Shown here one piece after another: positions 687 to 50,704 of a stretch of DNA of 64,000 nt. The stretch is from a virus. The position numbers were made by a program, and so were the translations under genes. The stretch spans positions 32,001 through 96,000 of the IMG/VR virus record IMGVR_UViG_3300044535_000472. One strand, 5' to 3'. Every line of letters starts with the position of its first letter. Positions within the stretch are counted from its first letter, which is position 1. The notes under the pieces were generated by a model that worked only from the letters and a program-made list of their open reading frames with translations, was not told the origin of the DNA and searched no databases.

Positions 687-826
687 CGACCTTGTCCTCT
701 GTAAGCTTTCTTGTAGTTCTTACTAGACTTTAATCGACTAGTTTTAGTTTTTGCTATTACTCCAGGGCGACTAACCTTAGTTGCTCTCGGAGCATAGCTA
801 TTCTTTGCATTTACAACTTTTGCCAT
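683..826 (-). CDS. small basic protein, 47 aa (MAKVVNAK...SSKNYKKAYRGQGR)
   Basis: Manually translated, not in the ORF track. A-rich leader. The YKKxYRGQGR ending is a recurrent motif of small basic phage proteins. Its stop overlaps the convergent stop of 303..686 (TTAA). Confidence 0.75.
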   Translation of the reverse strand: MAKVVNAKNSYAPRATKVSRPGVIAKTKTSRLKSSKNYKKAYRGQGR

Positions 827-2224: not shown

Positions 2225-2471
2225 TTGTTTCTTCTTTAGGTTTAAATGGTATGTTCATCTTCTGAGTAAATACACCTTCAAGCATTGTTCCTACAAATAC
2301 CCCACCGCCTATAAACATAATAGTATTATACATGTACTCCGGGGTTTTGTATTCTGAGAATGTAGCTATCCATGCTAAAGCAGACCCTGTTATAATACAG
2401 TAGAGACCCACAAGTCTTTTAGAACTCTGGTCTCCGTCTTTACTTAATATAGATAGTACCCACTTTTTCAT
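2190..2471 (-). CDS. holin-like two-TM membrane protein
   Basis: SSKR followed by two hydrophobic helices and a charged C-tail; located in the lysis cassette. Confidence 0.6.
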   Translation of the reverse strand: MKKWVLSILSKDGDQSSKRLVGLYCIITGSALAWIATFSEYKTPEYMYNTIMFIGGGVFVGTMLEGVFTQKMNIPFKPKEETNDTPANEETVQ

Positions 2472-20400: not shown

Positions 20401-21398
20401 GCGCCTAAAGAAGTTCCAGAGATTGGGACTGTAACCCAGTTTTCTGGTTTATTAAAATTATCCTTCGTGTAAGCAAATAAGTTTGTCATAAACTTAATTT
20501 CTTCATTAAGGATTTCCTGAGCCTTTTCTACAGATATCCCCTTACGCTTAGCAATATCTTCTGGAGCAAGTACACGCTTTCCTATATTTTCTGAAGCTGC
20601 TCTACCTGATCTAGCCTCAAAGTAAATAGGCTTACCGTTATTCTTGTTTGTAACATTATAGTCATTGTCAAAGAAAAGAATGTTACCACTTGCATCTGTA
20701 ACAGCTAGCAAAAGATTGTCAGCTCTTGAATAAGCTGTGGTATCATAAATATCATTTTTCTTTACTAGAGTTTGCAATGCACCTCTTGGTATAGCCGTTA
20801 AGTGATATCCGTAATCTTTATCTTTTGCGTTGTTAGTTATGTGTAGGATGAAATCGTAGTAAAATGCTTTTGCAGGGTCAGCTACGCGATCTTCTAATTT
20901 AGTTGCAGCATTAACTAAGTTCTGAATACCAGTTGTAGAAAAAAGACTATCTACAATATAGTTAAATGATGTAGCAAGTTCTAATGCATTACCCGCTGGT
21001 AATTCACCACTAGTAGATCTTTCAATTGCAGCTTTAACTTCTACCTCTTCAACTTTTTCTGCAGTTTCACCAGTGCCTAAATATGCTTGAACTTTAGAAT
21101 AGTCTTCAAACTCTAGCATTTTATCCGTAACAAAGTTTACATTAAACCCTGTTTTGATTAAGTGCATAGTAACATTGTTGTTAATAAAGGCAGCCTGACT
21201 AATAATACTTGGTAGTATTTGGGTATATGCCTCAGTAACTAATTGGTCATCTGCATTTTTAGAAATAAGACCCACAATATCTTTCATGTAGGTCTCTGGA
21301 TTTATCGGAGTATTATTTGAAAACGCTTCATAAAAATCACGATATACCATTTGGTAAAGCGAGTCTCTTTCTTTTTGACTTATACTACAGATTGCCAT
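11430..21398 (-). CDS. virion DNA-dependent RNA polymerase of crAss-like type (3322 aa) with an N-terminal zincin-like domain
   Basis: RIPVQGLNSM...IVAKSGGDFDIDKL: the DFDID catalytic motif (14481-14495) is the hallmark of the single-chain double-psi-barrel RNAP of crAss-like phages. EGDAQGWIT and KMQYWG segments are also present, as is LYHEAWH..EEFLAEEF (zincin). Confidence 0.9.
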   Translation of the reverse strand: MAICSISQKERDSLYQMVYRDFYEAFSNNTPINPETYMKDIVGLISKNADDQLVTEAYTQILPSIISQAAFINNNVTMHLIKTGFNVNFVTDKMLEFEDYSKVQAYLGTGETAEKVEEVEVKAAIERSTSGELPAGNALELATSFNYIVDSLFSTTGIQNLVNAATKLEDRVADPAKAFYYDFILHITNNAKDKDYGYHLTAIPRGALQTLVKKNDIYDTTAYSRADNLLLAVTDASGNILFFDNDYNVTNKNNGKPIYFEARSGRAASENIGKRVLAPEDIAKRKGISVEKAQEILNEEIKFMTNLFAYTKDNFNKPENWVTVPISGTSLGAMYVDYNLLTPISKVNFINQVFKPVIVPEKNYRASGQTKTNQVFYINGVTGAIPIISRGMSSDIARKLARLIARPVFEINDLGEKRELTVDEKNKYLSEYIYLPESGIEFNYVKGLGRVLKLSGKSIDAQKEAEAEDAIYKHLFEKFYVSGTEVTEKELKSGFLDGKTVINKQIDKAYEDKLDENTIVEDPIARKRDKGTGYFKVYKRRLHIKSDVLGDINGLFDNFNINEKDGEWIKTKNEVNYVDYIKDNFFINIPLNKDNQIVGLNGHIKFDPSDENFEKILNYERKKAAAPTKTNKGKKSATTKPAAKEKGKKAPAEKVEEAPKPSAWEVINEIVKNDSLEDDEFQGLSRNKKQARDFVRQFGLRFDIAQLSPNELKAKLEEAKKWFDNSIFKDKFPLENLMNEVNTYDPTSVAKWYQNAIILFEGANYSDLYHEAWHGFTRMFMTDAQRQELYEKTRKRSGNFRTYKGVYRDFAKASDLELEEFLAEEFRAYMLSGGKMEIKDVTQRSIFRKILDFFLELFGVQSYNDMVLNQEALTYANDIYNKLQFGRLTEYSYSEQNLPAEIRQQVMNKGAEAINEDYSTPLLTMRNSMEIVDTLDSLVSDFVNLRIGVTEDGSGDKAYYTTALLAIPKGREAALQYAKTKIEEAIEALDIQIANATTDSEKQRLLNQQDALVWATDNWDTESDKGIIAYYNKKSRFSDFVTASEKAVLLFEDTGEFKSRDGHDRRGNEASLLDLANESVIYLIKSLHALESNGDKALNNLGFNTLMDFGIAWNRITRILQGANSPQEMYSRLQDSKEDYPFIQELLIKLGNPDTQMTANAQNLWTQFNDAFNKTRVPLVALVIDRTTNVLERDAEGNIIKTEFEYSAKVGGASTADAKVGRDWNDRFKTTTTKYIKPDINGNNFLDIDAIYNDYASQYNSLNRLKFLQDVGIYFDNKSKIIAALNKMIPNPAKVMFDRIEAIKLHNDKMIAENKPKSIIVVRKIDDLINPTKKVRQDGDVLKGLRGFYNSLQKIQATYTDDYSDFMVLNAAGDAQYEFMENNTITQMIRELQEAPDFNTLIAKPEMSHLSALRNPFVSNDPDPRRKRLVTIHELFDMSKANGPKRGIKEEVGSNEKITIDINNLAGVSFTVNGEPSNGIAASDSDEFTKRLTDFHVSVIHGLPMGTTPADKSTILVYHLSNRKYYVNPREFALGTNGEAAAFNILLGYLEAELDRINRVKALPANAPERMIPVGKSTYGVEGEKFVIFSDMIRPELQEELKSIPAEYGGRLRDYLDLPESSDLKKRIADDVIKVYFANKINEFTEKLVEAEYMDDTMHNKIQELYAGNDTKAKKLTRNQTRNIAIKTHVYNSFIHNVETVLLYHGDPALYNMAKEEFQKRNAGINSGGIIPRTDPAMLRYLNNVVFAPDKASYRSSSWYTGQSVEKSYGEQFRSAVLEDVETKSLYYAAIEDDIRTSIKNSPGYKNGKLTDEDVEKIVKERAKPYREMKEGDAQGWITFDGYKALSIMMGAWSDTQELLYRDVLAKKNIDQTKIKEFFPVLKMQYWGPLATNGLPLTAFHKFSLVPLIPSTIEGSDLEKLHNKMVEQKVDYALFGSGSKIATITPNGKPDKFYKNSEDATNRELAFTEDGYMFTPNDIFLKYFKKQLEIAPKYKNKTTFPTQLRKLIESGLMENGVPTDFEPDMPKEVRIANWSKIGDDRAKRRESKNYSLIKRFQGNLENLMAQKKQELLDEIGWTYENGKPTGPLDKLFAYIESQLTKRELAEHHLDFVKLNKEGKLKSSLDVSLAAAEIEKVLVSIINKKLIKQKVTGEALVQVSGAGYTNRDFFNANKDSKERLEVLGTNDLPFYRKKDGKTMAMKIKIGIQGEYKKLLDLPKVTEMIEDAARKGQSLTRLQALNQLLKDESWLNEDNNRKLVSLAGVRIPVQGLNSMEFMEVYEFLPEGSNQIVLPAEIVAKSGGDFDIDKLTTLMYKLTKNEDGSVSIAEDFQNDVITDIMDILSLESNYVDLITPNATDIVLPIAQELASKVRPYDSLQNVFTERGKEIKGTRIFEIEYNIYKHGSNSIGKRTLGQGAVDNTYSVIFNTVGAYLQPKYIIGEDEKGDPIKKEQTIYLPHNTLLTPDGAAISLSNLYDADGVNKVSDVISQLINGWVDIAKDPWIFDIQGNNFVAPALLLMVQAGVPIRQAAYFVSQPIIRQYINEVKKAKSAYAGPLGIELSNPNFFRSEARRKVLMNFPEMLAYTDTNDDGETVLYSKSIKNAASDIAGSLKDKVFNQQYFEDHLQDELDFENTDQLALLLHFLDIEDMSKVITAVKRTTNLDTQVASSLFETNLRQHQADQLREDDRFGEDVISKILDESSISSFGIAEFMSDIYKNLFTIRDSKLVNDFLLKKLSDKKFKSAVSDTFGEQDAFISNFRNDLVMFMFQNYMRNLDLDSIKYYKSLQVASKSVKLKPTTKSPVSVFVKNVKLKDKTTIPMMYFDKQKLVEEFESLQANSGKENINITNPELPFEFGIIRSGMFQNIREYGRYVMEREYLRNAIPVSDIIKRSDYIQYKKDFIAAKFEEIEESELENKATTFAYENTLRDMALDNTFNQYYILKSPTKSYAKRLLDIKEKYPDLVQKYKVLDFLTADEAKTKERVIKFKSGKLDADRINRFHEDLVELTDPFNLIETANMTSSEAQEISKFFTNLPIYTMFTTGFNSKGEYGIGQIMPDTRLTPILESMINYMETNKLMTWNLINSYFNKFSTVNSYKNTSSRYKVRNYTLDQPLWKASRNPAADLTGSFGAVQTFRDNYQSPSFIVGKAEKDVDIKQAINKLLSDRSNYLFVYNGASNPTAKPLETNDSVFALSQENTNSFGLTSKLGYQDVVSQQMTDNNYDENIKAIENSIQALKKAAKDYDNKIFWNAAGYGQYMIGADVNGENVNQKRAKAPKTFVYLSKRLYEEFGYKNKNYEVVAPKKFIRVTREDILNKVQELNKC

Positions 21399-24300
21399 TA
21401 TTCACAACGATTTTTAAGATTATTTAAAAAGTTATTTTGCGCTTGGGCCTTAGTCATCTTTTCAGCATCACTAGCAAGTTTAGCTTGAGCATCTTTATCA
21501 TTAGCTAAAGTTTCTGCATTTGACTTTGATTCATTCATAACTTCATCAGTTTCAGGTTTTGGAGCAGGAGCCTTTTTCTTTTTTGTAGATGAAACAACCA
21601 TCTTATCAATATCTTCTACAACTGATTCATCTAGGATTTCACCTATGGCATCCTCGTCATTCAAAGGTACAACAGTAACTTGTTTTTTACTAACTTTTTT
21701 AACCTTAACTACACGACCATCTTCAAGTTTAATGATCATTCCCACTTCAGGTTTTACTTTAGCTGTTTCTTCAGTTTCAAGAACTTCTGGTTCTTTAACA
21801 ATTTCTTCAATAGCAATACCGTATAGCTTAAGCTCATCAACTATCTTTTTAATTTTTTCATTTAAATCATTGATTTTAACTAAGTTACCTGAGCTTATAG
21901 CTGCAATTTGTTCACCTCTTAGTTTAGATAACTTAGTTTTTAAACCGTCAATTCTTTTTTGCTGTTTAGTTTTTTCAGCTTCAGCTAATGCATCTTCTTC
22001 CTCTTGAGTTCTAGTAACTTCAGAACCTGCTGGTCTACCATATCCAGTAACCTCAAAGATATCACGTGATGTGTTTAGCTTTAATAGTATACTAGGGTTT
22101 TCTGCAGTTCCTGTATTTAAACTAGTAAGACCTTTTACAACACCTCCAGCATTAGTAGAAAGTTGTATTGGTAGGATGTAAATATCGGTGATGTCTTCCC
22201 CAGTAGCTTGGCGAATTAATTCACGGTATGCTAACTGTTGAATTGTATGTCCACGCTCATATTGATATTCATCTGCAGGATCATTATAGCTATCAACTAA
22301 GTTTCTAGTAGACGTCTTTAAGTCAATAATACCTAAATCGCCATTTTCATTATACATAAGAAAGTCAATTTCCCCAGCACGTGGTCCAGCAATATCACCA
22401 AATAAAGTTGGGATACTACCTACTACTTTAAAGCCTTTATCTTTTAAGTATTGTTTAACTTCAACCATTGTGTTGTACAATGCACTTGGGAAAGTCGCAC
22501 TATACTGCATCATTTTCTCACCACTTTCTGAGTCAACTTTACCAGATAACTCTTCTAGTTTTTGTTTTACTTGCTCTGGTGTAGTTAATTTACCATCAAA
22601 GAAATCACGAAAAATAGGGTCAAGTACATTACCACGGTTAGCAGCAGTAGTATTAGTAAACTTCTTGGCTAAGATATCCCTAACGATATCACTAACACGA
22701 GCTACCTTATTGCCATCCTTTTCATATCCACCTTCTACTTTAGTAACTCCACTAGCTTTAAAGCTATCGCTAAGTTTCTTAATTAAAGCTTGTACCTTTT
22801 TATCAGCTTCAGCAAACTTAGCAGCAAACTGAAGATCAGCTATTGCTTGTTGTAGTGTTTGACCTTGAGCATGTAAAGCAACAACCTCATCTTCGGTTAA
22901 ACCATTAATATGTTCTGGTAACCAACCTCTTGCAAATAGATCATCTCTAATCTGCTGAATATCAAGTGGTTTAGGTTCTTCTGGTTTTTCTTCAACAGGA
23001 GCTTCAGTTTTACTTTTCTTCCAGTTTTCAATAATTGTAACAGCCTTTGGGTTAGTTTGAATAAAGTTTTTAAAGCCTATTTTGCTTTCTTTTATTTTAG
23101 CAACGGCAGCTACTTTTTTATAAGCATCATAAAGTAAATCGGAAAGATCTTTAGGAAGCTTTTCAACAGGGGTGTTAATATCAATATTATCTACATCTTC
23201 TGCTGTTGTACTAAATCCTTCTAATGGTGTAACCTCAGGAACTTCTTCAGTAGTAGCAGTAGAGGTTTTAGTAGATGCTGTTTTTACCAATACAGGTAAA
23301 CTAATCATTACCGAACCATTTGCTGCATTAAATCTTAATTCAGCTTCGGGTAGTAACTTAGTTACTTGTTCTTTAATTTTATTAAACTCTTCTCTAGTTA
23401 AACCTGTTTTTTGCTCATATAAATCACTTATTTCATCTTCTGTTTTTGCAGAACGTAATGCATCTAAAGTAGCAGCATTTAAACTAACATTGCTAGTAAT
23501 TATATTTCCAGATGCATCTCTTAATAACTCATATCCTCTTTTTAAGTTATTAGCATATACTCGTAAACCGTCAAGAGAAATGTTTGTTTTTTCAGTGTAC
23601 TCATGTTCTGCAGGTAAAGACTTTTGAACTTCTGCAAGCATAGTCTTAAAGTTATCTTTATTACCAGACTTGTTCTCCATTTTAGAAGTCCATCTATTAG
23701 TTGGAGTAGTAACAACTTTACCATCTTTTATAGACCTTTCATATATTCTTATATAACCAACATAATCATTATCAGATGTTCCTGTCATGATAACATCTAC
23801 TAATCCATTATCTGGGTTAGTATATTCAGCAAGACCAATTCCGTTAACTTCTCTATAGCCTGATATTTTTGAATTTTTACCACTACCTCCAACTACATCA
23901 GCAAACTCAGTTTCATCTGGGAATAAATCTTTTCTTTTTCTATTCTTAATTGCATCTTCTGGTGTTTCTGTTGCAGGTTTAGTACCCTTAGCTTTTGCTC
24001 CTAATGCATCTGCCTCAGCATTAGCTTCTTCAAATCCAATTACCTCACCATCTACTGTTACAGTTAATGGTTGAACACCAAGTTTTAAAGCTCTAGATGT
24101 TGCATATATTATTGCCTGTAAAAGCTTTACTCTTCTATCATTTTCTTCTGGAGTAAGTTTATCGCTTTTTTCTATTACAGGAGTTTCTTCAGCCGTAGTT
24201 GTTTCTTCTTCTTCAATAGCAACTTCTTCTAGTACTTCATCCTTTGGTTCTTCAACAGATTCCATAGCAGGAGACTTTCTACGCTCACCCGGTTTTTGTA

Positions 24301-27300
24301 AGTAATCCGTTTGATCAATAGTTAATCCTACTAATGCTACAGCTTGCTTTAATACATTATCATCAGAACTTTTTATCTTAAATGTATTCTTAATAAACTT
24401 TTTAATAGAGTTTACTACTTGAGTAAATGTACTTTCTTTTGGAGTTCTAGTAGATTTAACCTGAATAAGTAACGCCTGAAACTGTGGGTTAGTCATTACC
24501 TCATTAATAAAACTAACAGGTGACGCCATACCCATTGGTATCTTACCTCCAAAGTCATCAAGTAAAGATGGATTAGTTTGAACTGTTGCTTTTACAGCAT
24601 CCATCATTTCTTCTACCTCAGCTGCAAATTCTTCATCTTGTAAAAAGTCTGTAGTTAAAGACATCATCATACCTTTTAATACAAGGTATTCTGCTCTATA
24701 CTCATTGTCTTTATAATTAGAAGACGCATATCTAAAATCAATAATGAGCCCGTTTTTAGGATCATGTGAAATAGGTACGCTATGATTAGGTCTAATGGTA
24801 ACTTTCATGTCACCCTTGTTTAGACTTAAAATCTTTTGCGCTAATTTCTTTTCAGCTGACGTTGCAAACTTGCTATTAATAATAAAATTACAAAGATCAT
24901 CCATAGATACTTGAGATGCTTTAGACATATCAATACCTAACTCGTTAGCATAATCTTGTACATTGCGGGTATCTTGACCATTTTTTTTCTTATGTGCAAA
25001 ACTAAAATACTCTTCTAGTAAACCAAGTTCTGCAGCCGCTTCACGAATAGGTCTTTCTTTAACAACCTTATTGTATACCTTTTCATAGTTATCAAACATT
25101 TCTTCAATAGCTGGTATACGAAGATCATTTCCTTTTATAGGCTCTAATGTCTTTGCATCAATTAGTGTTGGATACCTATCATTTTTTTCAAATGCTTCAA
25201 TATCCTCTACACTTACAAATACACCTTGTTGTTCAAATAAAGCTTTTAAGAATGCGTTTTGGATCATACCCTTCATGAACTTCTTTTTCTGTTCTCTAAG
25301 GATATCCTTACGCTTTTCATATACACGCTTTAATGAGTAGCCAATATTATTTTTAAACTCATTAAAACCAATAGGATCGGTTAACATATTAACCCACTTA
25401 GCCATATTTCTATTATCTGTACCTAATGAATGCCAATCATTATACATGGTAAACATATCATTAAGCTCTTCTGCTAAGAAAGGTCTAACGTTACTTGTAG
25501 TAGTCATGTCATTAAAGTACTTATCAAAAGCGCTCTTTAATACATTCTTATATTCGTCTAATGCATCTTGAGATGTTAAATCATCTAATGTAAACTCTGT
25601 TTCATCTTCTAGATTTTTCTTATCTAGGTTTTCAATAAAAGCTTTTCTTGCATCTTCAAGTTCTCTTTTTTCTTCTGCAGTAAGTGTGCTTTTTCCAGCA
25701 AGACTTAAAAGAGTTGAATAAATAGAAGATGCATTGGCAAGATTCTCAAGGTTATCAGCTTCACGTGTTAAACGTTTTGCAATTTTAGTTTCACCATTCT
25801 CTTCATTTATTTTAGCCTGAGCTCTTAATGATTTAACATCATCTTGCATTTGTGATACAGAGAATATCTTAGATGCACGCATTCCAGGCATTCTAGAAAA
25901 ACTAGGAATTGCAGCAAACTTTTCTTGTATGCCTTGAATTCTATCTAAAGTTTCTTCAAATGTTTTACTAGAATATACAGCAAAGAATGTAGCCTCCTCA
26001 TGCGCATTATAATTATTTACTTCTGCAGCATAAGCCTCAGGGTTAGTAAACTTATTAATCTTGCTTGGATCATACTTGTTAGGCATTTTTTCACGGAAGC
26101 TTTCAAAACGCTGACCTAAATCTTGTACGTTTCTAATAGCTTTTTCTAATCTTGAAAAATATTTTGCTTGATCAGCTTCTACATAATTTTCACCTAAAGC
26201 ATTTGCTAGCTCTTCAGCATTAAGTTGTCTTAAGTCTTTTAGGTTATCTATAAGAACATCTAAGCGTCCGGCTTGAGCAAGTGTATGCACATAGCTTATT
26301 GTAGCATCATTTCTAATATCACGTTGATCTTTTTCATCACCTAAAGCTTCAGCTACATGTCCAACTCTTGCATAGTTAATTTGTTCTCCACCCGCTTTAT
26401 CAAATAACTTATAGAATTCTCCAGGATCATCTGCAGATTTTTGAGCAGCTGTTAAAACTCTATTAGCTTGATCATTTAAATCAGCTGCGTATTTCTCATA
26501 GTTTTCTTTACCCATCCAAGTCTTTTTGCCAAGCTCAACCATTGGATTAGCAACTGATTTTACCATAGAGGTTCCAGTGTATATTGCTCCACCGCTTAAT
26601 AAACCTTGTGCAAAAACTTCTAGACCTTCTTTACTATATTGACTATTAGCACCAACAAGTATAGATTCTCCCAATACTCCTTTGTGAAATTTAAGCGGAT
26701 CTTGAAACTTGGTAGTGTAGTAGTGGTCAACACCTTTAATAGCAGCCTCTTGGAATAATTCCTGAATACCTTCTGGTACATTTTTACCTAAGTAATCAAG
26801 TAGTCTACCAGGAGTTTGCATCATCGCATGTTTTAAATATGCTTTCTTACCCCACCTTTTAATATTATTTTCAATAAGCTCGTAACTAGCTTTACCAGCT
26901 GCACCAGCTATAGTAGATTTTACTAAATGCTTGTTATAATTTTTTACAAATTGATCTGCTAAACTTCTTTTTACTGCACCATGTCCAATTATTTTTTCAA
27001 AACCAAAAGCGTTGGTCATGTATATAATAGGAAGATTTATAAGCGTAACAGCTTTACCGTTTTGCTCAGCAATAGTTAAAATTTTTGAAGCATCTTCACC
27101 AGTTGGTCCAGTAGAAAGTTTTTGCTTAGCATCTATTAACTCATTGTGCAATTGCTCATAACGAGTTTTATCTGTAATCTCATTATTTTCATTAATAAGA
27201 GATTGCATTTCTTTATTAATACTAGCAATTTTCTTTTGTTGAACTGCACCATATTCTTGTCTACCTGATTCAATTTTTTCTAGTATAGCACCACCACCTT

Positions 27301-28294
27301 CAGTTTGAGCTTCATTAATACCAAATCTTATACGCTGAAGATCTGCATAGCCTCCACCAACACTTCTCATTATTGCAGCAACCCCATTTAATTCACGAGC
27401 TTCATCAAGACCTCTTATTGTATTTTTTAAAGGATTAATTTCTTTTGCAAAACCAACACCCATGCCTTTTATACCACCTAAACCTTTTTGACCTTCCCAG
27501 ATCATTCTTAATTTAGCCACATTATCTGCTTTGCTAAAAGCGGATAATCCAGTTTTTATAGCCTTACCTCTTTCAATAAGAGAAGGTATACGAAGTATAT
27601 TTCTAGCAGCTGCGGCGTCTAATGGTTTTGTTGCTGCAGTAAGTCCCAATCTTGAAGCAGTAAACTTAGTAGCAGCTATAGCACTTTCTTCTATTAACAC
27701 ACCTGCTGCTATACCTAATGTAGGAGCTAGGTTTGCAAAAAAGTTTACAGAGCTACCAGCAAATCCTGGCTTACTTGACATCATAATAGACATACCATCT
27801 TGGTATGCCTTAGCACCTTCTATATCAGGAGTAGCATCAAATAAATCACTAGGCTTTGTATATGGCTTTAAATAATCTTTAGTAAAACCCCACATGGTAC
27901 TAGGAAGGTATTTAGCCATCCTAATAAAATCACCGCCCACTCTACCATGCTCATTATAATATTGCTCAGTATCAAAGTTTGCAGGATTAATACCAAGTAC
28001 ATCTACATCAGGATGTGCATAATATCTTTTTAAATTAAGACCTTCACTACCAGCACCAAATTGAGTAGGTTGTGAAAAACGCAAAGGATCAACTTTAACA
28101 CTAGCAATCTCGGAAATTTTATTGTTCCAATCATTAATTGTTGGTGCTCCCGTATTTGTAACTTTTATTGGCGTTGAGGTTTTTGGTTTAAATTCTGGCG
28201 CAGGTTTAACAGCTGGCTGTTGCGCCTTTGCTGTCATATTATCCCAAAATTCAAAAACAGAAGGTGTGCCTTGCGGAGTTTGTTCGTTTGCCAT
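21398..28294 (-). CDS. giant virion-ejected protein (2298 aa) with hydrophobic N-terminal helices, a degenerate zincin-like domain and a PD-(D/E)XK nuclease domain
   Basis: Gly/Ala-rich hydrophobic segments near the N-terminus; RGNVLD..GEIDFLM..IIDLKTS..QQLAY nuclease motifs; position directly before the RNAP gene. Confidence 0.75.
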   Translation of the reverse strand: MANEQTPQGTPSVFEFWDNMTAKAQQPAVKPAPEFKPKTSTPIKVTNTGAPTINDWNNKISEIASVKVDPLRFSQPTQFGAGSEGLNLKRYYAHPDVDVLGINPANFDTEQYYNEHGRVGGDFIRMAKYLPSTMWGFTKDYLKPYTKPSDLFDATPDIEGAKAYQDGMSIMMSSKPGFAGSSVNFFANLAPTLGIAAGVLIEESAIAATKFTASRLGLTAATKPLDAAAARNILRIPSLIERGKAIKTGLSAFSKADNVAKLRMIWEGQKGLGGIKGMGVGFAKEINPLKNTIRGLDEARELNGVAAIMRSVGGGYADLQRIRFGINEAQTEGGGAILEKIESGRQEYGAVQQKKIASINKEMQSLINENNEITDKTRYEQLHNELIDAKQKLSTGPTGEDASKILTIAEQNGKAVTLINLPIIYMTNAFGFEKIIGHGAVKRSLADQFVKNYNKHLVKSTIAGAAGKASYELIENNIKRWGKKAYLKHAMMQTPGRLLDYLGKNVPEGIQELFQEAAIKGVDHYYTTKFQDPLKFHKGVLGESILVGANSQYSKEGLEVFAQGLLSGGAIYTGTSMVKSVANPMVELGKKTWMGKENYEKYAADLNDQANRVLTAAQKSADDPGEFYKLFDKAGGEQINYARVGHVAEALGDEKDQRDIRNDATISYVHTLAQAGRLDVLIDNLKDLRQLNAEELANALGENYVEADQAKYFSRLEKAIRNVQDLGQRFESFREKMPNKYDPSKINKFTNPEAYAAEVNNYNAHEEATFFAVYSSKTFEETLDRIQGIQEKFAAIPSFSRMPGMRASKIFSVSQMQDDVKSLRAQAKINEENGETKIAKRLTREADNLENLANASSIYSTLLSLAGKSTLTAEEKRELEDARKAFIENLDKKNLEDETEFTLDDLTSQDALDEYKNVLKSAFDKYFNDMTTTSNVRPFLAEELNDMFTMYNDWHSLGTDNRNMAKWVNMLTDPIGFNEFKNNIGYSLKRVYEKRKDILREQKKKFMKGMIQNAFLKALFEQQGVFVSVEDIEAFEKNDRYPTLIDAKTLEPIKGNDLRIPAIEEMFDNYEKVYNKVVKERPIREAAAELGLLEEYFSFAHKKKNGQDTRNVQDYANELGIDMSKASQVSMDDLCNFIINSKFATSAEKKLAQKILSLNKGDMKVTIRPNHSVPISHDPKNGLIIDFRYASSNYKDNEYRAEYLVLKGMMMSLTTDFLQDEEFAAEVEEMMDAVKATVQTNPSLLDDFGGKIPMGMASPVSFINEVMTNPQFQALLIQVKSTRTPKESTFTQVVNSIKKFIKNTFKIKSSDDNVLKQAVALVGLTIDQTDYLQKPGERRKSPAMESVEEPKDEVLEEVAIEEEETTTAEETPVIEKSDKLTPEENDRRVKLLQAIIYATSRALKLGVQPLTVTVDGEVIGFEEANAEADALGAKAKGTKPATETPEDAIKNRKRKDLFPDETEFADVVGGSGKNSKISGYREVNGIGLAEYTNPDNGLVDVIMTGTSDNDYVGYIRIYERSIKDGKVVTTPTNRWTSKMENKSGNKDNFKTMLAEVQKSLPAEHEYTEKTNISLDGLRVYANNLKRGYELLRDASGNIITSNVSLNAATLDALRSAKTEDEISDLYEQKTGLTREEFNKIKEQVTKLLPEAELRFNAANGSVMISLPVLVKTASTKTSTATTEEVPEVTPLEGFSTTAEDVDNIDINTPVEKLPKDLSDLLYDAYKKVAAVAKIKESKIGFKNFIQTNPKAVTIIENWKKSKTEAPVEEKPEEPKPLDIQQIRDDLFARGWLPEHINGLTEDEVVALHAQGQTLQQAIADLQFAAKFAEADKKVQALIKKLSDSFKASGVTKVEGGYEKDGNKVARVSDIVRDILAKKFTNTTAANRGNVLDPIFRDFFDGKLTTPEQVKQKLEELSGKVDSESGEKMMQYSATFPSALYNTMVEVKQYLKDKGFKVVGSIPTLFGDIAGPRAGEIDFLMYNENGDLGIIDLKTSTRNLVDSYNDPADEYQYERGHTIQQLAYRELIRQATGEDITDIYILPIQLSTNAGGVVKGLTSLNTGTAENPSILLKLNTSRDIFEVTGYGRPAGSEVTRTQEEEDALAEAEKTKQQKRIDGLKTKLSKLRGEQIAAISSGNLVKINDLNEKIKKIVDELKLYGIAIEEIVKEPEVLETEETAKVKPEVGMIIKLEDGRVVKVKKVSKKQVTVVPLNDEDAIGEILDESVVEDIDKMVVSSTKKKKAPAPKPETDEVMNESKSNAETLANDKDAQAKLASDAEKMTKAQAQNNFLNNLKNRCE

Positions 28295-28296
28295 AA

Positions 28297-31200
28297 TTAC
28301 TGTATCAATGCTTGTGGGTCTCTAATTAAATCTGGGTTACTACGCTTCCTATCAATACCCAATTGAGTTATATAACCAAAATTATCTAATCCCTGTTGTC
28401 TTAATTGTTCAGCAAAATAATATCCTGGTATTGTACCTTTACTTGCATATTGTGTTTCAATTTGCTGTGGAGCTACTAATCCTTTAAGATCATCTGCTGT
28501 TAATATTTGACCATTAAGCACATAGTTATCATACTTATCTTGTGTGATATTAAATATACCAGATCCAGGAATATTAACCGTAGCTTTTCCCATAGCCCAA
28601 AGAGCTAAGTCTACCCAGTCTGATTTTACAGTGCGTTTATACAATGTATTAACAGCTTGAGATTTAGGTATTAATGCTGTAAATACTAAGTCTTTATTAT
28701 TATTTTGAAACCCTAATGATTTAGCTTTTTCACCATTAAGTGTAATCTGATATGCTGTCATGTTAGATGAACCAGCAACTGGATACACTCGTATTTGACC
28801 TGCAGCTAAATCAAGCTTGTTAAAGTTTCCTACATTAGCTTGACCTTTAATATCATTTTCTAAGTTGGATAATAAGCCTAATAATTTATCTGCATTTTTA
28901 GAATGATTATCTTCTAAATCAGCCCAGTCCCAATCATTAATATTTTCGTCGCTTACATCAAGTTTATCAAGAAGTTTTACATAAGGCATGTCAACCAAAA
29001 ATGATTTTTGATAATACTTACCATCTTCTTTTCTACTTGCTATACTACCTTTAAGGTTATTGATAAGACCAATTAAATCTTGGTTACCTGTACCAGATGC
29101 TAAGTCTACACCTTCATTAAAGTTAATAAAGTATGGTTGTGCAGTGATACCACCTTGACCCTTATAGCTATCAGCTAAGATATTTCTAGGACTATATGTT
29201 TGCAAATCTGTATTTTTATCTGCAGCTGCAATTCCATATTCTCTTTTAAATGTATCATAGCCTACTATAGGAATTTCTGGAAACTCTAAATATGCAGGAG
29301 CTTGACCTCTTTGTTGTTGAACCGCTGCATAATCTTGATATACCTGCCATTCAGTAGTTCTACCTTCTGAAGTCCAAGTTTCCATTATTGCTTCTTTTAA
29401 AAGCTCTTTACCATTAACACCCTTTTCATTTAATCTATTAACAATACTTGCAACCTCGGAAGGATTTCCTTCAAATGCTAAATTATCAAACCATGCATTT
29501 GGATCATAGTTTAATGCCTTATTTCCTTTTTCTGCAAGTCGTTGAGCAATTTTTGGATTTAATTTATTTTGCTCAAGAACAGCACTACGAACTTCTCCTC
29601 CAAAAGTAGGGGTATATGCACCACCAATACCGGATAATTGTGATGCCCAAGTACCAGCCATATCTGCTTTACCCTCTAAAGAATTTGTTGTTACAATTGC
29701 AGCATCCGCCATAACATCTGCAGCAGCCCATATCTTAGGATTGTTGTAAATTTGATCTTTAAACTCCTGCTGTGTTTTAACTGCTTTTAACGGTGCTCCA
29801 TTAGCTGGACTATTCTCAGCATTAACAGTACCCATTTGTTTAAAGATGTACTTATCCATAAAGTCTCTTAGCTCGGTACCACTACCATAAGCTAACATAC
29901 CAGGATTAGTTTCCATCTTAGCACCTACTTTTGCAATGTTATATTGGTCTACAATTATCATTGCCTTTTCAGTTTGAGACTGAATATTAGCTAATGAAAC
30001 TTTGTCCATTATAGTCGTCTTATCAACATCATCTTTAAACAAAGGATCTTTACTATATTCTGCTACTGCTCTATCAAAGCTATCTGATGTAGTAATTCCT
30101 AATTTCATATATGGGAAGATGTCGCTATTTTTAATTTGACCATCATCACCAATAAGCCCTAATCTATCTGGGCCAGGAAACATTTTCTTTATAGATGCTA
30201 ATGCACTTTTCTTTTCACTAGGTGTACCATATGCAACCTTGTCTTGATATTTTCTTAGTAATAAATCTACAGTTGTTCCTTTTACATCATCAAGAATTTG
30301 ATTCTTGGCATCTAAGCCAGCAGTTATAGCATTTTTAGTTTGAATGTTTTGAGCTGTTAAAGCAAGTCCAGTATCCCATAAATTTTCTAAAAATGATTTC
30401 TCTCCAGGTAGTTGAATATTTTTATATTCTTGAGTCATTTCAGGACTAACTTCACCAACAAGATTTTCACGAGAGTCATCTTCAGATACTAACGGATTAG
30501 GCATTAATGTAGCTAATACTGAAAATTTATTTAAATCAGTTCCTACAATAGTTTTTCTAGCTTCAGTACGAGTTTGATCCGCTAAATAAGTTGGAATACT
30601 ATCCGTACCTAATGCAAACTTTGAATAATCTTTAGCAGCATTTACTATAGCTTCTACAGATGCACTATCCGCATTAGCTTCCAAAAGGGCATCAAATTCT
30701 GCCTTTCTTGGATTGTTTTCAGTGAACATGTAACCAAATGGATTTTGGTATTTATTAAATACATATTCATTAAAGTCTTTTACATCAGCTTCAGTTTTTA
30801 TTACATCTGCTGGATTAGGAGCTTCAATAGGTGCATATTTTTCACTAAAAGCTGTATCTTGAAATGCTGTACGTGCGGTATCGCTAGGAGTCGCACTTGC
30901 AGTTTGTGCTGTAGCTGTACCTGCAGTATCACTTGGTGGAACATAATTACTAGCTAATAACGTATCTGCTACAGTAGATGTAGTATCTGGTGCAACAACT
31001 GCTGTTGCTGTAGAATCTACTTGTGGAATATTTGTTGTAGAAGCTTGACCTGTACTATCTACAGATGATGGTGTAACTGTAGCTGTAGCTGTACTATCTT
31101 GGGGTGTAGTTGTAGTTTGTTGCTGTGTAGTTTGCTGAGAAGATTCTCCTCCACCAGTACTTACACCAGCTTTTTCAGCAGCTTCTTTTTGAGCACCATC

Positions 31201-32781
31201 ACCATCTAAAAATGATAATTGGCTTTTATCAGTAACACCTAGGGTAGCAAGTTTATCTGTACCCATACTATTCCACACAACCTCACTACCATGTCCTCTT
31301 AATTGGTGAATATAAAACTCAAGTTCATTTTCCTTTTTTTCTTTTTCTGATTTACGAGCATTATCATTAGTTGTAGTTCCCGCATCAAGAATACTTTGCA
31401 AACCAAATGGATCTGCACCTGCATCCTCTAATAATAATTTCTTAAGACTATCATCTAAGAAACCTGCTGATTTTCCAGATCTGCCACCTAATCTACTATC
31501 CCAAAGTTTTTTCTCAAGGTCGTTAGCATAATCATAAGCCGCCTTCTTCCATTGGTTTTCTAGCTCCATTGACTTAAGAGAAACCTGATGTGAAAAGTTC
31601 AAGTTTTCTAAATATATAGGATCAGCTTTTACATCTTGCTTTTGTGTAAGTTGTGCATATGATGAAGCTGCAGTAGCTAAGTCATTACTTAATAAACCTC
31701 TAGCCAAAATAGCATCAGCTCTAGCAGCTAATGCACTTTGTGATAATCCCTCAGTTGCTGTAGGAGATGTAATATCTAAAGATTGTGTATAGTAGTCATC
31801 AGTTTGCTCAGCAACTTGACCATCATCATTTAGTCGACGATAGTACTCAATAAGATCTTTATCAAGTTCTGGGTCAACACCCTTTTCCTTAATATAGTTT
31901 TCTGCTACTTCTTTTTTAGCATTAATAGTTTCTTTATTACTCTGAGCTATCTTTTTATTTTCAAGATTGGCTTTATTTTCAGACTCGATAACTTGGCGTA
32001 TGTAATCTGCTTCTGCAGCTTGTGCACTACCAAATTCTGATGCTTTTGATTCACCGTATTGCTTACGTTGTAAATAAGCAGATACATTATACATATCGGC
32101 AACTTGCTGTTCATTACCGTATTTAGAAAGGAAGTAGTTGTACAATGGAACTTCCATTGGAGTACCATTAGTAGTAGTATAAATATAACGACCATCCGAA
32201 GACACCGTTTGCATTTCTAGTTTACTAGATGTAGCAAATTTTACAGCATCGTCAACTACGTTTACAAATGGAACATACTTAGGTGAGCTCATTGCTAAAG
32301 CTTCTTGCTCAGTAGAGTTAGCAAAATCTTGTGCTTTATATTGCAAATACTGAACACCACCATCCCAATACTTACCGCCGCATTCTTTTGGATTTAAACA
32401 ATTTCTAAAGAATTCTGCACGGTCATACTCATTATAAACATCCTTTGTAAAGTTAACATCTTTGGCAAATAACTTATTGGTTGTCAATGGTTTAAACACC
32501 TGAAAAGCAGCTCGTTGATTATCCTCTATAGATAAATCTACACCAGCTAATCTTTGTATTTCATTATTAGCCTTTGAGAAAAAATCATTTCTCATTGTAG
32601 ACGTATCCTGTCTTGTAAGAGGTGAGTTTAATAGTGTACCATAAATGCTGTTAACTCGATCATACCCAGCTTCATACTGCGCATTCTTGGTATCAAGAAC
32701 AGTTTTATAAAAATTAAAATCAGGCTGATACGGTTGTATCTGCGGTATGTATTTATTACTTCCTTGTAAGTACGTTGCCAT
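28297..32781 (-). CDS. large virion cargo/ejected protein (1494 aa) with a central Ser/Thr-rich linker
   Basis: Long ORF in the cargo block; N-terminus MATYLQG..YIPQIQPYQPDFNFY; S/T/A-rich segment at ~30850-31140. Confidence 0.65.
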   Translation of the reverse strand: MATYLQGSNKYIPQIQPYQPDFNFYKTVLDTKNAQYEAGYDRVNSIYGTLLNSPLTRQDTSTMRNDFFSKANNEIQRLAGVDLSIEDNQRAAFQVFKPLTTNKLFAKDVNFTKDVYNEYDRAEFFRNCLNPKECGGKYWDGGVQYLQYKAQDFANSTEQEALAMSSPKYVPFVNVVDDAVKFATSSKLEMQTVSSDGRYIYTTTNGTPMEVPLYNYFLSKYGNEQQVADMYNVSAYLQRKQYGESKASEFGSAQAAEADYIRQVIESENKANLENKKIAQSNKETINAKKEVAENYIKEKGVDPELDKDLIEYYRRLNDDGQVAEQTDDYYTQSLDITSPTATEGLSQSALAARADAILARGLLSNDLATAASSYAQLTQKQDVKADPIYLENLNFSHQVSLKSMELENQWKKAAYDYANDLEKKLWDSRLGGRSGKSAGFLDDSLKKLLLEDAGADPFGLQSILDAGTTTNDNARKSEKEKKENELEFYIHQLRGHGSEVVWNSMGTDKLATLGVTDKSQLSFLDGDGAQKEAAEKAGVSTGGGESSQQTTQQQTTTTPQDSTATATVTPSSVDSTGQASTTNIPQVDSTATAVVAPDTTSTVADTLLASNYVPPSDTAGTATAQTASATPSDTARTAFQDTAFSEKYAPIEAPNPADVIKTEADVKDFNEYVFNKYQNPFGYMFTENNPRKAEFDALLEANADSASVEAIVNAAKDYSKFALGTDSIPTYLADQTRTEARKTIVGTDLNKFSVLATLMPNPLVSEDDSRENLVGEVSPEMTQEYKNIQLPGEKSFLENLWDTGLALTAQNIQTKNAITAGLDAKNQILDDVKGTTVDLLLRKYQDKVAYGTPSEKKSALASIKKMFPGPDRLGLIGDDGQIKNSDIFPYMKLGITTSDSFDRAVAEYSKDPLFKDDVDKTTIMDKVSLANIQSQTEKAMIIVDQYNIAKVGAKMETNPGMLAYGSGTELRDFMDKYIFKQMGTVNAENSPANGAPLKAVKTQQEFKDQIYNNPKIWAAADVMADAAIVTTNSLEGKADMAGTWASQLSGIGGAYTPTFGGEVRSAVLEQNKLNPKIAQRLAEKGNKALNYDPNAWFDNLAFEGNPSEVASIVNRLNEKGVNGKELLKEAIMETWTSEGRTTEWQVYQDYAAVQQQRGQAPAYLEFPEIPIVGYDTFKREYGIAAADKNTDLQTYSPRNILADSYKGQGGITAQPYFINFNEGVDLASGTGNQDLIGLINNLKGSIASRKEDGKYYQKSFLVDMPYVKLLDKLDVSDENINDWDWADLEDNHSKNADKLLGLLSNLENDIKGQANVGNFNKLDLAAGQIRVYPVAGSSNMTAYQITLNGEKAKSLGFQNNNKDLVFTALIPKSQAVNTLYKRTVKSDWVDLALWAMGKATVNIPGSGIFNITQDKYDNYVLNGQILTADDLKGLVAPQQIETQYASKGTIPGYYFAEQLRQQGLDNFGYITQLGIDRKRSNPDLIRDPQALIQ

Positions 32782-43100: not shown

Positions 43101-44445
43101 CTGATTTTGCAACTCTTTGTATATCAGGTATATTATATCCATACTGTTTTGCCCAATGCTGTAAATTTTGAAGATCTTTAAATCTTCTTCCTGTGCTTCC
43201 AATTGCTCCAATATTTTTTACCGCATTTAAATCTGAAGATAAATTTTTAGCTCCTAGAAAGTTTAACGCATTGAGACCTCCTTCAAATGCTACATCTCTC
43301 CAGTCTCCTTCTCCAGCATTATATCTAGATACAGCTTGTCTAAAGTCAGATTCTGGATTTAAAAAATTATAAGTACCTACAGCTTGAAATGCTGGATTAA
43401 CGACATTACCCAGTGTAACACCAGTACCTAATAACTCCAAACCTAATGTACTAGCAATAGCTGGAGCAGCTGCATATAATCCTACTGCAGCATCTAAAGG
43501 TCCAACTGTTGTATTTGTTGTACCAAGCATGTTTGCTTTCTGCTGAGAATCTTGCTTATGTTGTTGATAAGCAGAAAATTTTCTACTAAACTCGGTACTA
43601 TTAATAGCTTTATCGGCCTGATCTAAAATGTATTTTTTATCTTTTAACTTAGAATTTAATTTCTTTTTTTCTTTTTCATTTTTTGAAAAAGATATATCAA
43701 AAGTCAGTTGACCTATTTCGTCTTCTATTTTTTGTTTATTGTATGATGCATTTAAATAATCAGTTATGTCTGCATCACTTATTTCACTATTAGTAATATC
43801 TTCAGGACTCCATAAACTCATTCCTCCTATTTTTGGACCTGTACCAAAGCGACTTGTATATGCTGCTTTAGCATAACCAGTTTCTGGATTTACACTTTCT
43901 AAATCTTCTTGACTAGGTGTAGTAAGATGTTTTGCAAAACGTTCTTTTTTCTCCTGCTCTAAAACTTCTTTAGATGGTTGCTTATAATTAGCATCCATCC
44001 AGTTTGCAATCTCTTTACCTCTTTCTAAATTATTCTTATTCTGAGCTGCTGTATTATATGCCCAATTTGCATTTCTATATTCATCTACTGAGTTCCATCC
44101 TGCTACCTGTGCTCTTCTGTTAAGCTCCATATTCTCAGCAGGACTTAAATTAACATCATAGCTAGAATTAAATTGACCTGTAGTTTGGGCTTTTGGTAAA
44201 GTCTTTATTTTAACTCTTTTAAGATTTGGCATAGAGGTATTACCACCATAAGCCATCATAGGTATTTCATATACGGCAGTACCAGGAAATGTATAGTTAC
44301 CTCCAGGCTGCATCATTTTAGTATTACCTAAATTATCAATACCCAATACAGGGTATGGTACACCCTTCATTGTTATATCACCACTTGGAATAATAGTATC
44401 CTCACCAGGATATTTCCATTGTCCATATTTACTTACTTTAGCCAT
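40174..44445 (-). CDS. modular cargo polyprotein (1423 aa): ART-like, GH108-like and GH24/T4-lysozyme-like domains separated by xxxGG linkers
   Basis: TFVRGVS..ALYVSNS..AEGY; YEYARG..DGTGLTDYG..DFIYNTG..RDFYY..WYGRI; QENG..DTIGYGH..LDFVYN. Confidence 0.7.
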   Translation of the reverse strand: MAKVSKYGQWKYPGEDTIIPSGDITMKGVPYPVLGIDNLGNTKMMQPGGNYTFPGTAVYEIPMMAYGGNTSMPNLKRVKIKTLPKAQTTGQFNSSYDVNLSPAENMELNRRAQVAGWNSVDEYRNANWAYNTAAQNKNNLERGKEIANWMDANYKQPSKEVLEQEKKERFAKHLTTPSQEDLESVNPETGYAKAAYTSRFGTGPKIGGMSLWSPEDITNSEISDADITDYLNASYNKQKIEDEIGQLTFDISFSKNEKEKKKLNSKLKDKKYILDQADKAINSTEFSRKFSAYQQHKQDSQQKANMLGTTNTTVGPLDAAVGLYAAAPAIASTLGLELLGTGVTLGNVVNPAFQAVGTYNFLNPESDFRQAVSRYNAGEGDWRDVAFEGGLNALNFLGAKNLSSDLNAVKNIGAIGSTGRRFKDLQNLQHWAKQYGYNIPDIQRVAKSDMLTDMTFRGLLNRHNTFVRGVSTNWPKVKETLSGRWLGEENAWSKLIKELEAQGINYETNPQAAAEYMASHIPGETGYGRYGLKKGEHALYVSNSKPNAEGYTYGDGYSVTLRRPTDFSSSNRLDWISANEYPINYGFRGSPYGTGIVANDYQKRLPTSIRDFVYVTKDPMKQHRLTQGLDDVYRKAQTDAWPMQRKFRNKKDALAKATNPKNRRGVLAADYDKSRSMSWTPGEDDLVFKDSPNLLDYAKMSYYDFMRAYYDIKPELAPLKVVLKEMFLDPKVYRGFAQNAFGELDPFSHYAFKGQPGEKIFDVIRTDRVTPEIWQNTSRAHMGTGSARYTRKQKGGDISIPSLKQIKIKSLPKAQLIGDIKTGIGKIADYEYARGRRDGTGLTDYGNPLLGTNPKRDDAINWMMTNVLPIAQPYYTTPAEQTEAVDFIYNTGRDPRIYQLDQYLKSIGQSGLPNRGSFNIDYYGAKADKKAVAAKLAELDKLWQQYAPAINKLSVNDRRQLLNKGRDFYYQNIDLKPDGTPSDAYYNTWYGRIWNTNDAAPFDPNDKRFKKVKQAGGSTEEEILANRNRAFQDIIVDDEMFDEGDFELYLDQAQTGGGLPDDYEDFLCYSETAPENRRPDSKWQYGNPRQYDHYNMWNALGKPENFEQALEMNPHWQPDPYDNMYHGFSTNPDTGVWLKSHIPGESHPGDTGWMEYKDFMLSNDRNWGGKNQNLVFDPELQRMRYIERKQDGGGIINMMQQYGYKPAPETPDVFDQMQKMGILPQPTPTLLDQYNQVMNAFDKPKPVRFKIPEDYYTRLMQQENGVNKGLKDGRYYQYASEEGGNDTIGYGHKLTDDDVKTNRYSKGLTKDEAIALMRNDAEEHLDRTLEQYETKFGKGSFDKLHPDLKVLALDFVYNGLPIEEYPNFFGAANQYSTTKDATVKKQAYEKMLKNYIRNVKKDGVLVPLGERNKYTRSVLDNLK

Positions 44446-49792: not shown

Positions 49793-50704
49793 TTAGACAG
49801 CATTATTTGTTCTATAATTTGGTGCAAATGGAAAATAAGACTTGAACATATCATAATATTTACCATACATGGCTTTACGGTTCATAGCCCATAGTTTTTC
49901 CATTTCGGAGAAGTTAGGAGTATTAACAATAGTAAGTGCATTGTTTCTAGCAGCTCTATACTCTTGTGATACAAGTTGATATTGTGCTGCTACATTTTCT
50001 CCATCCATTACTAAGTTTTCAAGTATACGTTTTTTAATAGCATACTCATAATACTCATTAAGCATTGGATGATCTGGTATTAATAGGTCACCATTTTCAT
50101 CCGTAAATGTTCCTTGATAGTTGATATAAACTGAAGCAGTTTCTAATGTTGTATACAACCAACCATCTTTAATCCAAGCTTCATCAACATGTGAGTGAAA
50201 AAGATTTGGCCAATTGCAATCTACATATTTAGAATTTCTAAATCTTAAAGGAAAAAAGTTTTTGTACGCTCTTCTTTCAGTATTTACTACTTGAATAATT
50301 TGATACTCTGAAGTTTTTTCACATTTGCTAAAACATACCGGTTGTTGTGGTAATGAATCATTAGTGCAATATGCTTGTTCTACCCAAGGTCTCCATGTTG
50401 GCGTAACATCTTGAACGTTAGTACCTTGCGCAGGTACAACTAAATCATACCCTTGTGATACAGCAAGAGCATAGTTCATCACATAGAAATCTTCTGGTAA
50501 ACGTACTCTACCTTTTTCAACCTCAAGAATAGTTTCTTTAGTCATGTTAATTCTAAGACCTAAATCATAGTTTACACGCATTGCAACTTTGATAAGTTGC
50601 GCAGGGTCAATTCTGTTTTCTAGTGTAAGAGTTCTAAGATCTATCTTAACATCTTCAAGAAGAGACTCAAAGGTTCTATATTTAAGGGTGTAGTTGTAAT
50701 TCAT
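49793..50704 (-). CDS. tail ring / head-tail adaptor protein (303 aa)
   Basis: Size and synteny (immediately before the muzzle gene); GRVRLPEDF and YQGTFTDENGDLLIPDHP segments. Confidence 0.55.
   Translation of the reverse strand: MNYNYTLKYRTFESLLEDVKIDLRTLTLENRIDPAQLIKVAMRVNYDLGLRINMTKETILEVEKGRVRLPEDFYVMNYALAVSQGYDLVVPAQGTNVQDVTPTWRPWVEQAYCTNDSLPQQPVCFSKCEKTSEYQIIQVVNTERRAYKNFFPLRFRNSKYVDCNWPNLFHSHVDEAWIKDGWLYTTLETASVYINYQGTFTDENGDLLIPDHPMLNEYYEYAIKKRILENLVMDGENVAAQYQLVSQEYRAARNNALTIVNTPNFSEMEKLWAMNRKAMYGKYYDMFKSYFPFAPNYRTNNAV

Follow-up and report, generated by a model that had tools for sequence, protein, structure and literature searches.

In the human gut no viruses are more abundant than crAss-like phages, which are also common in water. 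For the way in which they bring their DNA, along with several megadaltons of protein, through the Bacteroidota envelope, there is a single virion structure and a hypothetical ejection model. In phage crAss001, the only crassvirus studied structurally, the small cargo proteins are expected to form a trans-envelope channel through which the giant ones pass partly unfolded, and cargo sets vary among crassviruses (PMC10172136). Here, we analyze a window of 64,000 nucleotides, positions 32,001 to 96,000 of the IMG/VR virus record IMGVR_UViG_3300044535_000472, and in particular one of its genes, which encodes a protein of 1494 amino acids (aa) that we call P0001. This protein carries a Ser/Thr-rich linker in which every Asp residue lies in a tripeptide known from Bacteroidota O-glycosylation.

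The motif of general O-glycosylation in Bacteroidota, D-(S/T)-(A/I/L/V/M/T), is enriched in noncytoplasmic proteins mainly in this phylum; motifs engineered into exported proteins get glycosylated, and Glu cannot replace Asp in Bacteroides fragilis (PMC12871550). An extended form, (D)(S/T)(A/I/L/V/M/T/S/G/F/C), has been reported from glycoproteomics, and the motif is wholly absent from the gingipains of Porphyromonas gingivalis, type IX secretion system cargo, which has been read as selection against glycosylation (PMC8729774). In the following, strict sequons are D-[ST]-[AILVMT] and extended sequons follow the longer definition.

Sequon array in the linker

The sequon array of P0001 is a real and unusual signal. 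The eight Asp residues within residues 541-650 are all in sequons (QDSTA, VDSTG, VDSTA, PDTTS, ADTLL, SDTAG, SDTAR, and QDTAF), exactly as the first-pass annotation had read them from the translation. Composition alone does not explain them, as composition shuffles over four window definitions gave 1.4-1.7 expected sequons against the eight observed (p<=5e-5). In the same shuffles the D-[ST] dipeptide alone was also in excess (8 vs 3.0-3.3 expected, p 1e-4 to 4e-3), and the reversed motif h-[ST]-D was absent from the linker against 2.25 expected. The linker limits were drawn post hoc, and residues 651-700 hold four further Asp outside sequons; in a wider window (536-700) sequons occupy 8 of 12 Asp, still with p=5e-5. 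Two additional triplets that had been counted with the array, ADSAS (705) and TDSIP (727), are present, but at chance level, since outside the linker 3 of 109 Asp are in sequons vs 4.7 expected.

Over the full 122,614-bp record, 97 sequons were counted per 2442 Asp, with a maximum of four in any other 100-aa stretch. In three other Ser/Thr-rich stretches of the proteome, Asp is present but hardly ever within a sequon, and the linker is the sole sequon-filled one. Recent duplication as the origin of the array was ruled out because Tandem Repeats Finder detected a 22-bp (GCTACA)n run as the sole tandem repeat of the linker DNA, and because codons differ among the eight sites.

Ser/Thr/Ala/Gln-rich spacers are frequent in multi-domain phage proteins, and the linker could be an ordinary spacer of this kind, left unmodified, its D-S/T excess inherited in one subfamily and the depletion described below structural in origin rather than due to glycosylation. 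We consider this unlikely. Such a spacer would not be expected to show the strict orientation observed here, 8 forward vs 0 reversed, nor to differ from the other Ser/Thr-rich stretches of the same proteome, which hold Asp without sequons.

The conserved N-terminus of the protein family, YIPQIQP, is echoed as TNIPQV inside the linker (Table 1). The latter lies between the two DS[TS] sites that are best conserved, and might be a second, internal version of a docking or seam peptide at the N-terminus.

The linker across homologues

Twenty-five full-length homologues with 47-91% identity were aligned, giving 26 proteins including P0001, and the linker proved restricted to a subfamily of 1450-1600 aa. 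Pooled over the 26 proteins, and with the caveat that the homologues are related and such counts overstate the number of independent events, the linkers hold 77 strict sequons vs 22.7 expected (3.4x) and 110 extended sequons vs 31.0 expected, with the E-[ST]-h control at 8 vs 7.5 (1.07). The Asp at position 589 is invariant in all 26, followed always by Ser or Thr at +1 and by Thr, Ser, Leu or Ile, once Pro, at +2. D575 is mostly retained, and the remaining sites are gained and lost even between proteins that are about 90% identical.

The restriction to one subfamily, the loss of the strict motif from several members, the relatedness that makes counts non-independent and the lack of any such signal in crAss001 cargo are all compatible with an unmodified spacer. 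What such a spacer does not readily accommodate is that shuffles of the strict motif within individual linkers were significant separately for most members in several clades of the subfamily. With the extended motif, p<0.05 was obtained in 19/26 linkers.

Motif depletion outside the linker

The rest of these proteins shows the opposite trend. The N-terminal domains of the 26 linker-bearing proteins hold together 1 strict sequon vs 41.6 expected, and their C-terminal parts 31 vs 70.6 (0.44). Against this background of depletion, a linker with every Asp in a sequon looks deliberate.

The deficit extends to the distant family that shares the N-terminal domain. In a set of 153 representatives, of mutual identity <=50% by construction, D[ST]h was found 257 times vs 497 expected (0.52), and 96 vs 300 (0.32) in the C-terminal parts, with E[ST]h, N[ST]h and the reversed motif at 1.01, 1.18, and 1.36, respectively. 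C-terminal parts were under expectation in 137/144 cases and sequon-free in 76 vs 19.9 expected, the E-control being split 86 to 58. When X[ST]h was evaluated over all 20 residues X, Asp was the outlier (z = -10.8). The rarest D-x dipeptides in the family are DS (0.62) and DT (0.53). Avoidance of isoaspartate-prone bonds is an unlikely cause of the D-S/T deficit because DG is less depleted (0.78). Avoidance of a restriction site (GANTC overlapping Asp and a TCN Ser codon) was ruled out by reasoning, as the depletion is gene-specific within genomes.

Normalized to E[ST]x, the loss depends on the residue at +2: it reaches 0.3-0.6 for Leu, Ile, Val, Thr, Ser, Met, Gly, and Phe, and there is none (0.8-1.3) for Asn, Asp, Glu, Lys, Arg, Pro, His, and Tyr. 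This profile matches the extended motif known from glycoproteomics (PMC8729774).

Controls from the same genomes located the deficit in the gene rather than in the phages. We fetched 80 IMG/VR loci, located the family gene in 75 of them, and shuffled within 30-aa blocks. The observed-to-expected ratio of D[ST]h was 0.33 for the family gene (76 vs 233, z = -12), 0.58, 0.77, and 0.70 for the three genes upstream of it, and 0.97 and 0.94 for the first and second giant genes downstream. In ten whole genomes of the clade, the overall motif ratio was 0.80-1.13, and the family gene totaled 14 sequons vs 34.7 expected. The deficit is therefore a property of the family gene, less so of its upstream neighbors, and not of these phages. 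That it is specific to Asp, to Ser/Thr and to the gene, survives 30-aa shuffles and is absent from helical giants of the same genomes is difficult to reconcile with a merely structural origin, as the unmodified spacer would demand.

A different reader of D-(S/T)-x must also be considered, either a phage or host protease that cuts the linker between the N- and C-terminal parts, or a Ser/Thr kinase. The motif would then accumulate at its intended site of action and be lost from other places, and the pattern of avoidance everywhere but in the linker suits any sequence-specific reader. Also, the conserved linker core, DS[TS]A..TNIPQ..DS[TS]ATA, with its repeat of the N-terminal IPQ, resembles a recognition or seam peptide. 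Nevertheless, we judge this explanation quite unlikely. No protease or kinase of such specificity is known, while the host motif agrees residue for residue: Asp is required, Glu is neutral, and the +2 profile follows the extended sequon. For cleavage, one copy of the site or two would suffice, and there would be no need for four to eight that turn over individually.

Two neighboring genes deserve a comment. The 2298-aa protein encoded next downstream of P0001 shows the clearest sequon deficit in this phage (Table 1), with a normal E-control (9 vs 9.2). On average, the protein at the same position in related phages shows no deficit. Residues 1881-2055 of the 2298-aa protein give a weak PD-(D/E)XK nuclease-like match. 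Over 73 loci (L009-L087), the gene directly upstream of the family gene has a 1.58x excess of E-[ST]-h (201 vs 127, z 6.9) next to D-[ST]-h at 0.70; a conserved motif could account for this, as could Glu in place of Asp at former sequons.

The motif in predicted exported proteins

Mechanically called open reading frames (ORFs) were taken as exported or anchored when hydropathy showed a single N-terminal hydrophobic segment. Ten genomes gave 63 such ORFs, which after that segment hold 57 sequons vs 15.5 expected (3.7x, P=4e-16, E-control 0.91), and all other ORFs of the ten genomes have the motif at 0.93 of expectation. The same crude test gave 5 vs 1.5 for crAss001, whose host is a Bacteroides, and 1 vs 1.2 for coliphage T4, which has a GC content of 35%; N4 had too few ORFs with an N-terminal segment. 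A protease or kinase acting on cargo would leave this enrichment unexplained. Since array, family-specific depletion and exported-ORF enrichment coincide, the motif appears to be under selection in these phages, as far as sequence comparison can tell.

Within the window, a spanin-like protein of 121 aa provides a positive control for exported proteins from the genome itself (Table 1). It belongs to a lysis-like cassette, together with a 93-aa holin-like protein and a 154-aa protein whose gene overlaps that of the 121-aa protein and which has a signal peptide and a C-terminal membrane helix. Counterparts of the 121-aa protein in related genomes have 3-5 sequons each (G002 111965-112321, G009 16006-16320, G010 108357-108779).

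Phage placement and protein identity

The record is a complete-looking IMG/VR virus of 122,614 bp, from an uncultured phage. Its terminase matches Crassvirales only, at about 25% identity (E=1e-43), the hosts of the matched phages being Bacteroides, Flavobacterium, Cellulophaga, and Azobacteroides, and crAss-type portal and terminase families of the PHROG collection were matched (phrog_6681, phrog_6547). Gene order runs from ring 2 and ring 1 through the 1781-aa gene at the muzzle position to five proteins of 652-1494 aa and three giants of 2298-3322 aa. It mirrors that of crAss001, with its rings, gp44 muzzle, gp45/gp46 cargo, and gp47/49/50. Each of the ten whole genomes has the family gene between the muzzle gene and the giants of RNA-polymerase type, and a crAss-type terminase is present in all nine relatives fetched whole. 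By these marks, the phage is crAss-like. Shine-Dalgarno cores precede 5/107 genes, a frequency lower than background, and A makes up about 57% at positions -14 to -11; few Shine-Dalgarno cores and an A-rich upstream region are typical of Bacteroidota. Along with the terminase matches and the enrichment of the motif in exported proteins, these signs point, indirectly though in agreement with one another, to a host in Bacteroidota.

The N-terminal domain of P0001 recurs in a large set of proteins, always at the very N-terminus. Most of these have 950-1100 aa, varied C-terminal parts and no Ser/Thr-rich linker. As a sequence family it is large, uncharacterised, found in crAss-like phages, and new here. 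The whole 1494-aa protein and the family gave no match to Pfam, PHROG or Protein Data Bank (PDB) sequence profiles, tblastn against 50,697 phage records gave none either, and a genome-contig scan found no relative; IMG/VR holds one close relative only. The AlphaFold2 (AF2) model of the N-terminal domain has a mean predicted local distance difference test (pLDDT) score of 79 and shows a helical bundle with a long hairpin, for which fold searches (Foldseek, VIA-align) returned generic coiled-coil and helical-hairpin matches only, with Z about 10, within noise for helical models. Foldseek found no fold match for the C-terminal model (pLDDT 57). The two Cys of P0001, C128 and C134, form its only CX5C (Table 1) and are nearly invariant across the whole N-domain family; they could close a disulfide loop, in keeping with an oxidising destination such as the periplasm.

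A phage-encoded enzyme might instead glycosylate the linker in the cytoplasm, as happens to mycobacteriophage virions, for which Ser/Thr-rich tracts are reportedly known substrates. We hold this to be highly improbable here: neither GT2 (PF00535) nor GT1 (PF00534) was detected in the whole 122.6-kb genome, in a search that covered these two glycosyltransferase families and found both in 14/14 control genomes, and a strict preceding Asp is the hallmark of the host periplasmic system, not of known cytoplasmic transferases.

TABLE 1. Features of the window discussed in the text; positions are those of the 64,000-nucleotide window, and observed sequon numbers are given against expectation.
Feature	Position	Strand	Evidence or remark
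121-aa spanin-like protein, N-terminal membrane helix	1859..2224	-	DSI, DSL, DSL; 3 sequons vs 0.34 expected
Lysis-like cassette	1498-2471	-	93-aa, 121-aa, and 154-aa proteins
2298-aa protein, next gene downstream	21398..28294	-	0 strict sequons/144 Asp vs 6.6; 1 extended vs 9.3 (Poisson P<=0.001)
Gene of the 1494-aa protein (P0001): N-terminal family domain, S/T-rich linker, C-terminal helical/beta domain	28297..32781	-	ORF list, translation
C-terminal part, residues 651-1494, mostly helical with C-terminal beta region	28300..30831	-	Low-confidence AF2 model, pLDDT 57
Low-complexity linker, residues 541-650	30832..31161	-	T 28, A 17, S 15, Q 10, D 8, P 7 of 110
Array of eight D-[ST]-[ATL] sequons; Asp 562, 575, 589, 599, 606, 618, 634, 642	30850..31098 (codons)	-	Translation
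TNIPQV in linker	31024-31038	-	Echo of family N-terminus
N-terminal domain, ~420-430 aa (MATYLQG..IPQIQP..)	31492..32781	-	1238 cluster representatives, E<=1e-3
CX5C, C128 and C134	32380-32400	-	RNCLNPKECGG
YIPQIQP at N-terminus	32737-32748	-	Conserved in family
Upstream cargo-zone genes, 864, 891, 652, 1423 aa	32845..44445	-	Together 4 strict sequons vs 9.4 expected
1781-aa protein, crAss muzzle position	44445..49790	-	phrog_37948 virion structural protein; synteny with crAss001 gp44
Tail ring proteins 1 (303 aa) and 2 (224 aa)	49793..51378	-	PF24228 CrAss_Ring_1 59.3 bits, PF25702 CrAss_Ring_2 83.7 bits, above cut-off
FN3/VWA genes of the head/tail module	52119-52661, 52672-54183, 55539-57338	-	180-aa, 503-aa, and 599-aa proteins

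In the head/tail module, an FN3 domain is above the Pfam cut-off in the 180-aa protein and weak in the 503-aa protein, and a VWA domain is present in the 599-aa protein; the 503-aa protein is no obvious candidate for the major capsid protein. Elsewhere in the record, a 416-aa protein (L004:12153-13403, minus strand, genome 108153-109403) shares about 65% identity with a phrog_1645 protein, annotated as virion structural, in the Synechococcus myophages S-RIM12 and S-WAM2 and in Puniceispirillum phage HMO-2011. It is far closer to cultured phages than any other gene here, and looks mobile between unrelated aquatic phages.

Proposed explanation

Three classes of proteins can be told apart by the motif: exported proteins are enriched in it, ordinary and giant proteins are neutral, and the family gene and its upstream neighbors are depleted. 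The simplest account would be that host periplasmic O-glycosylation selects on those proteins that meet the periplasm. Exported phage proteins would employ the motif in the manner of host proteins. Entry proteins, which leave the tail unfolded and need to refold and assemble, would avoid it much like gingipains, and giant proteins inside the channel would not meet the glycosylation machinery. A motif purged from domains and concentrated in a linker fits periplasmic exposure after ejection.

We therefore favor, tentatively, an explanation in which the linker becomes exposed to the periplasm after ejection and is then O-glycosylated by the host system. P0001 would consist of two alpha-helical parts and, connecting them, about 110 aa of disordered linker, which if fully stretched would measure, by our estimate, roughly 38 nm. 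Packed in the virion, it would exit via the tail upon infection, unfolded at least in part, and join an envelope-spanning assembly in which the linker stays exposed to the periplasm. The general O-glycosylation system of the host would read D-(S/T)-(A/I/L/V/M/T) there and place glycan on up to eight Ser/Thr. The glycosylated linker would be an extended, protease-resistant, mucin-like tether between the helical parts. The parts that must refold and assemble would be purged of the motif because glycans there would do harm. As to its benefit, the glycosylated linker may be a shield, a stiffener, an anchor, or a ratchet, or might provide mimicry, as also raised in the first-pass annotation.

A number of observations weigh against this explanation. 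To begin with the linker itself, conservation of the cluster in homologues, which the first-pass annotation had put forward as a check, held for the D-[ST] excess in most members but not for single sites, which turn over. The linkers of P0015, P0016, P0022, and P0027 have zero strict sequons and carry DSS, DTP, or DSF instead (DSS and DSF fall inside the extended motif), and those of P0016, P0018, and P0021 are not significant even by the extended motif. The conserved core could be a specific peptide rather than a run of generic sequons, and the relatedness of the homologues, already mentioned, inflates the pooled counts. Regarding the depletion, the flanks of the linker in P0001 alone are not significantly depleted, and Ala at +2, a canonical sequon residue, is the only canonical one to be spared.

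Other points concern the route. By hydropathy the protein has no signal peptide, as stated in the first-pass annotation, and no membrane helix (maximum 19-residue Kyte-Doolittle mean 1.07, first 40 residues -0.06; no dedicated predictor was used), so that it would have access to the periplasm only by the putative ejection route. Its designation as cargo is by gene position only because it lacks homology to gp45 and gp46 of crAss001 (hhalign probability 0.4% and 0.1%). A search of the genome for PF25712 at E<=1, made without a positive control, found nothing, and the only lead toward this family is an Atlas feature match (0.89) to a cluster in which PF25712 accounts for 21% of the members. Neither the N-domain model nor the C-terminal model had a fold match to any ejectosome protein. 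The host is most likely a member of Bacteroidota, which is deduced rather than known, and its transferase would need to act on the incoming protein within minutes of ejection. Finally, gp44-gp50 of crAss001 show neither sequon array nor depletion, and thus the signal is not general to Crassvirales.

In sum, the view that the triplets are host O-glycosylation sequons has gained comparative support from the crAss-like placement with its Bacteroidota-type translation starts, the enrichment in exported proteins, the family depletion and the linker excess, whereas the host phylum, packaging, ejection, periplasmic residence, the glycan, and its benefit are steps that we infer. The interpretation given in the first-pass annotation is to that extent partly supported. 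A more ambitious version, in which the host glycosylates, during entry, a purpose-built linker of a virion-delivered protein and the same enzyme has in the course of evolution driven the motif out of the periplasm-exposed domains of entry proteins, so that the motif can be used as a reporter of topology, is possible but doubtful.

If true, these ideas would have several consequences. A host post-translational system would act on phage proteins as they enter, which would be a previously undescribed interface of virus and host, and the phages would both evade host glycosylation, in the purged domains, and use it, in the linker array. Sequon counts, whether enriched, neutral or depleted, would sort crassvirus cargo into periplasm-exposed and channel-shielded proteins from metagenomic sequence, which could be tested in uncultured phages. 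Host O-glycosylation mutants would be candidates for altered phage susceptibility. In addition, motif enrichment in exported phage proteins could provide a handle for host prediction because it would mark a Bacteroidota host.

Comparison with known systems

A search of the accessible literature found no paper linking crassviruses or phage ejection proteins to O-glycosylation. Close counterparts by position are crAss001 C1 (gp45) and C2 (gp46), which follow the rings and muzzle and precede the giants, as P0001 does, and are alpha-helical. Their channel-forming, partly unfolded ejection would be the route expected for P0001 (PMC10172136). They differ from it in having no sequence or profile similarity and no Ser/Thr-rich linker, sequon array, or depletion, and gp45 has a predicted membrane helix that P0001 lacks. 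The podophage ejectosomes (T7 gp14/15/16, P22 gp7/16/20, PhiM1, cyanophage A4) offer ejected internal virion proteins that span the periplasm, which is the route needed here (PMC8954989, PMC11440229, PMC12002296). Structural matches to them are, however, weak and non-significant (Foldseek E around 1), and the word "glycosylated" is absent from each of the full-text ejectosome papers retrieved.

Regarding glycan acceptors, Freeman et al. 2023 reportedly described O-glycosylation of mycobacteriophage virions by phage glycosyltransferases, with Ser/Thr-rich tracts as substrates. The likeness lies in the Ser/Thr-rich tracts of phage structural proteins as acceptors. That system is cytoplasmic and phage-encoded and has no Asp-dependent sequon, and the present phage has no GT1 or GT2 gene. 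Gingipains provide the precedent for purging of the motif from proteins that cross the Bacteroidota periplasm (PMC8729774). They are host proteins with signal peptides, whereas here a phage family is concerned, one subfamily of which also has a dense positive array.

A close likeness is to the general O-glycosylation of Bacteroidota. The tripeptide is the same, Asp is required with Glu as no substitute, Ser or Thr can follow, and the +2 sets overlap. Moreover, the motif is enriched in the predicted exported proteins of the phage as it is in noncytoplasmic proteins of the host. Known substrates use their own signal peptide or membrane anchor, while P0001 has neither and would arrive through the phage tail. 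What is new here, at the level of sequence, is the array in a signal-less protein of the cargo zone and the purging of the motif across its family. Together, they would mean that a host system already known acts, by a new route, on substrates of a new class.

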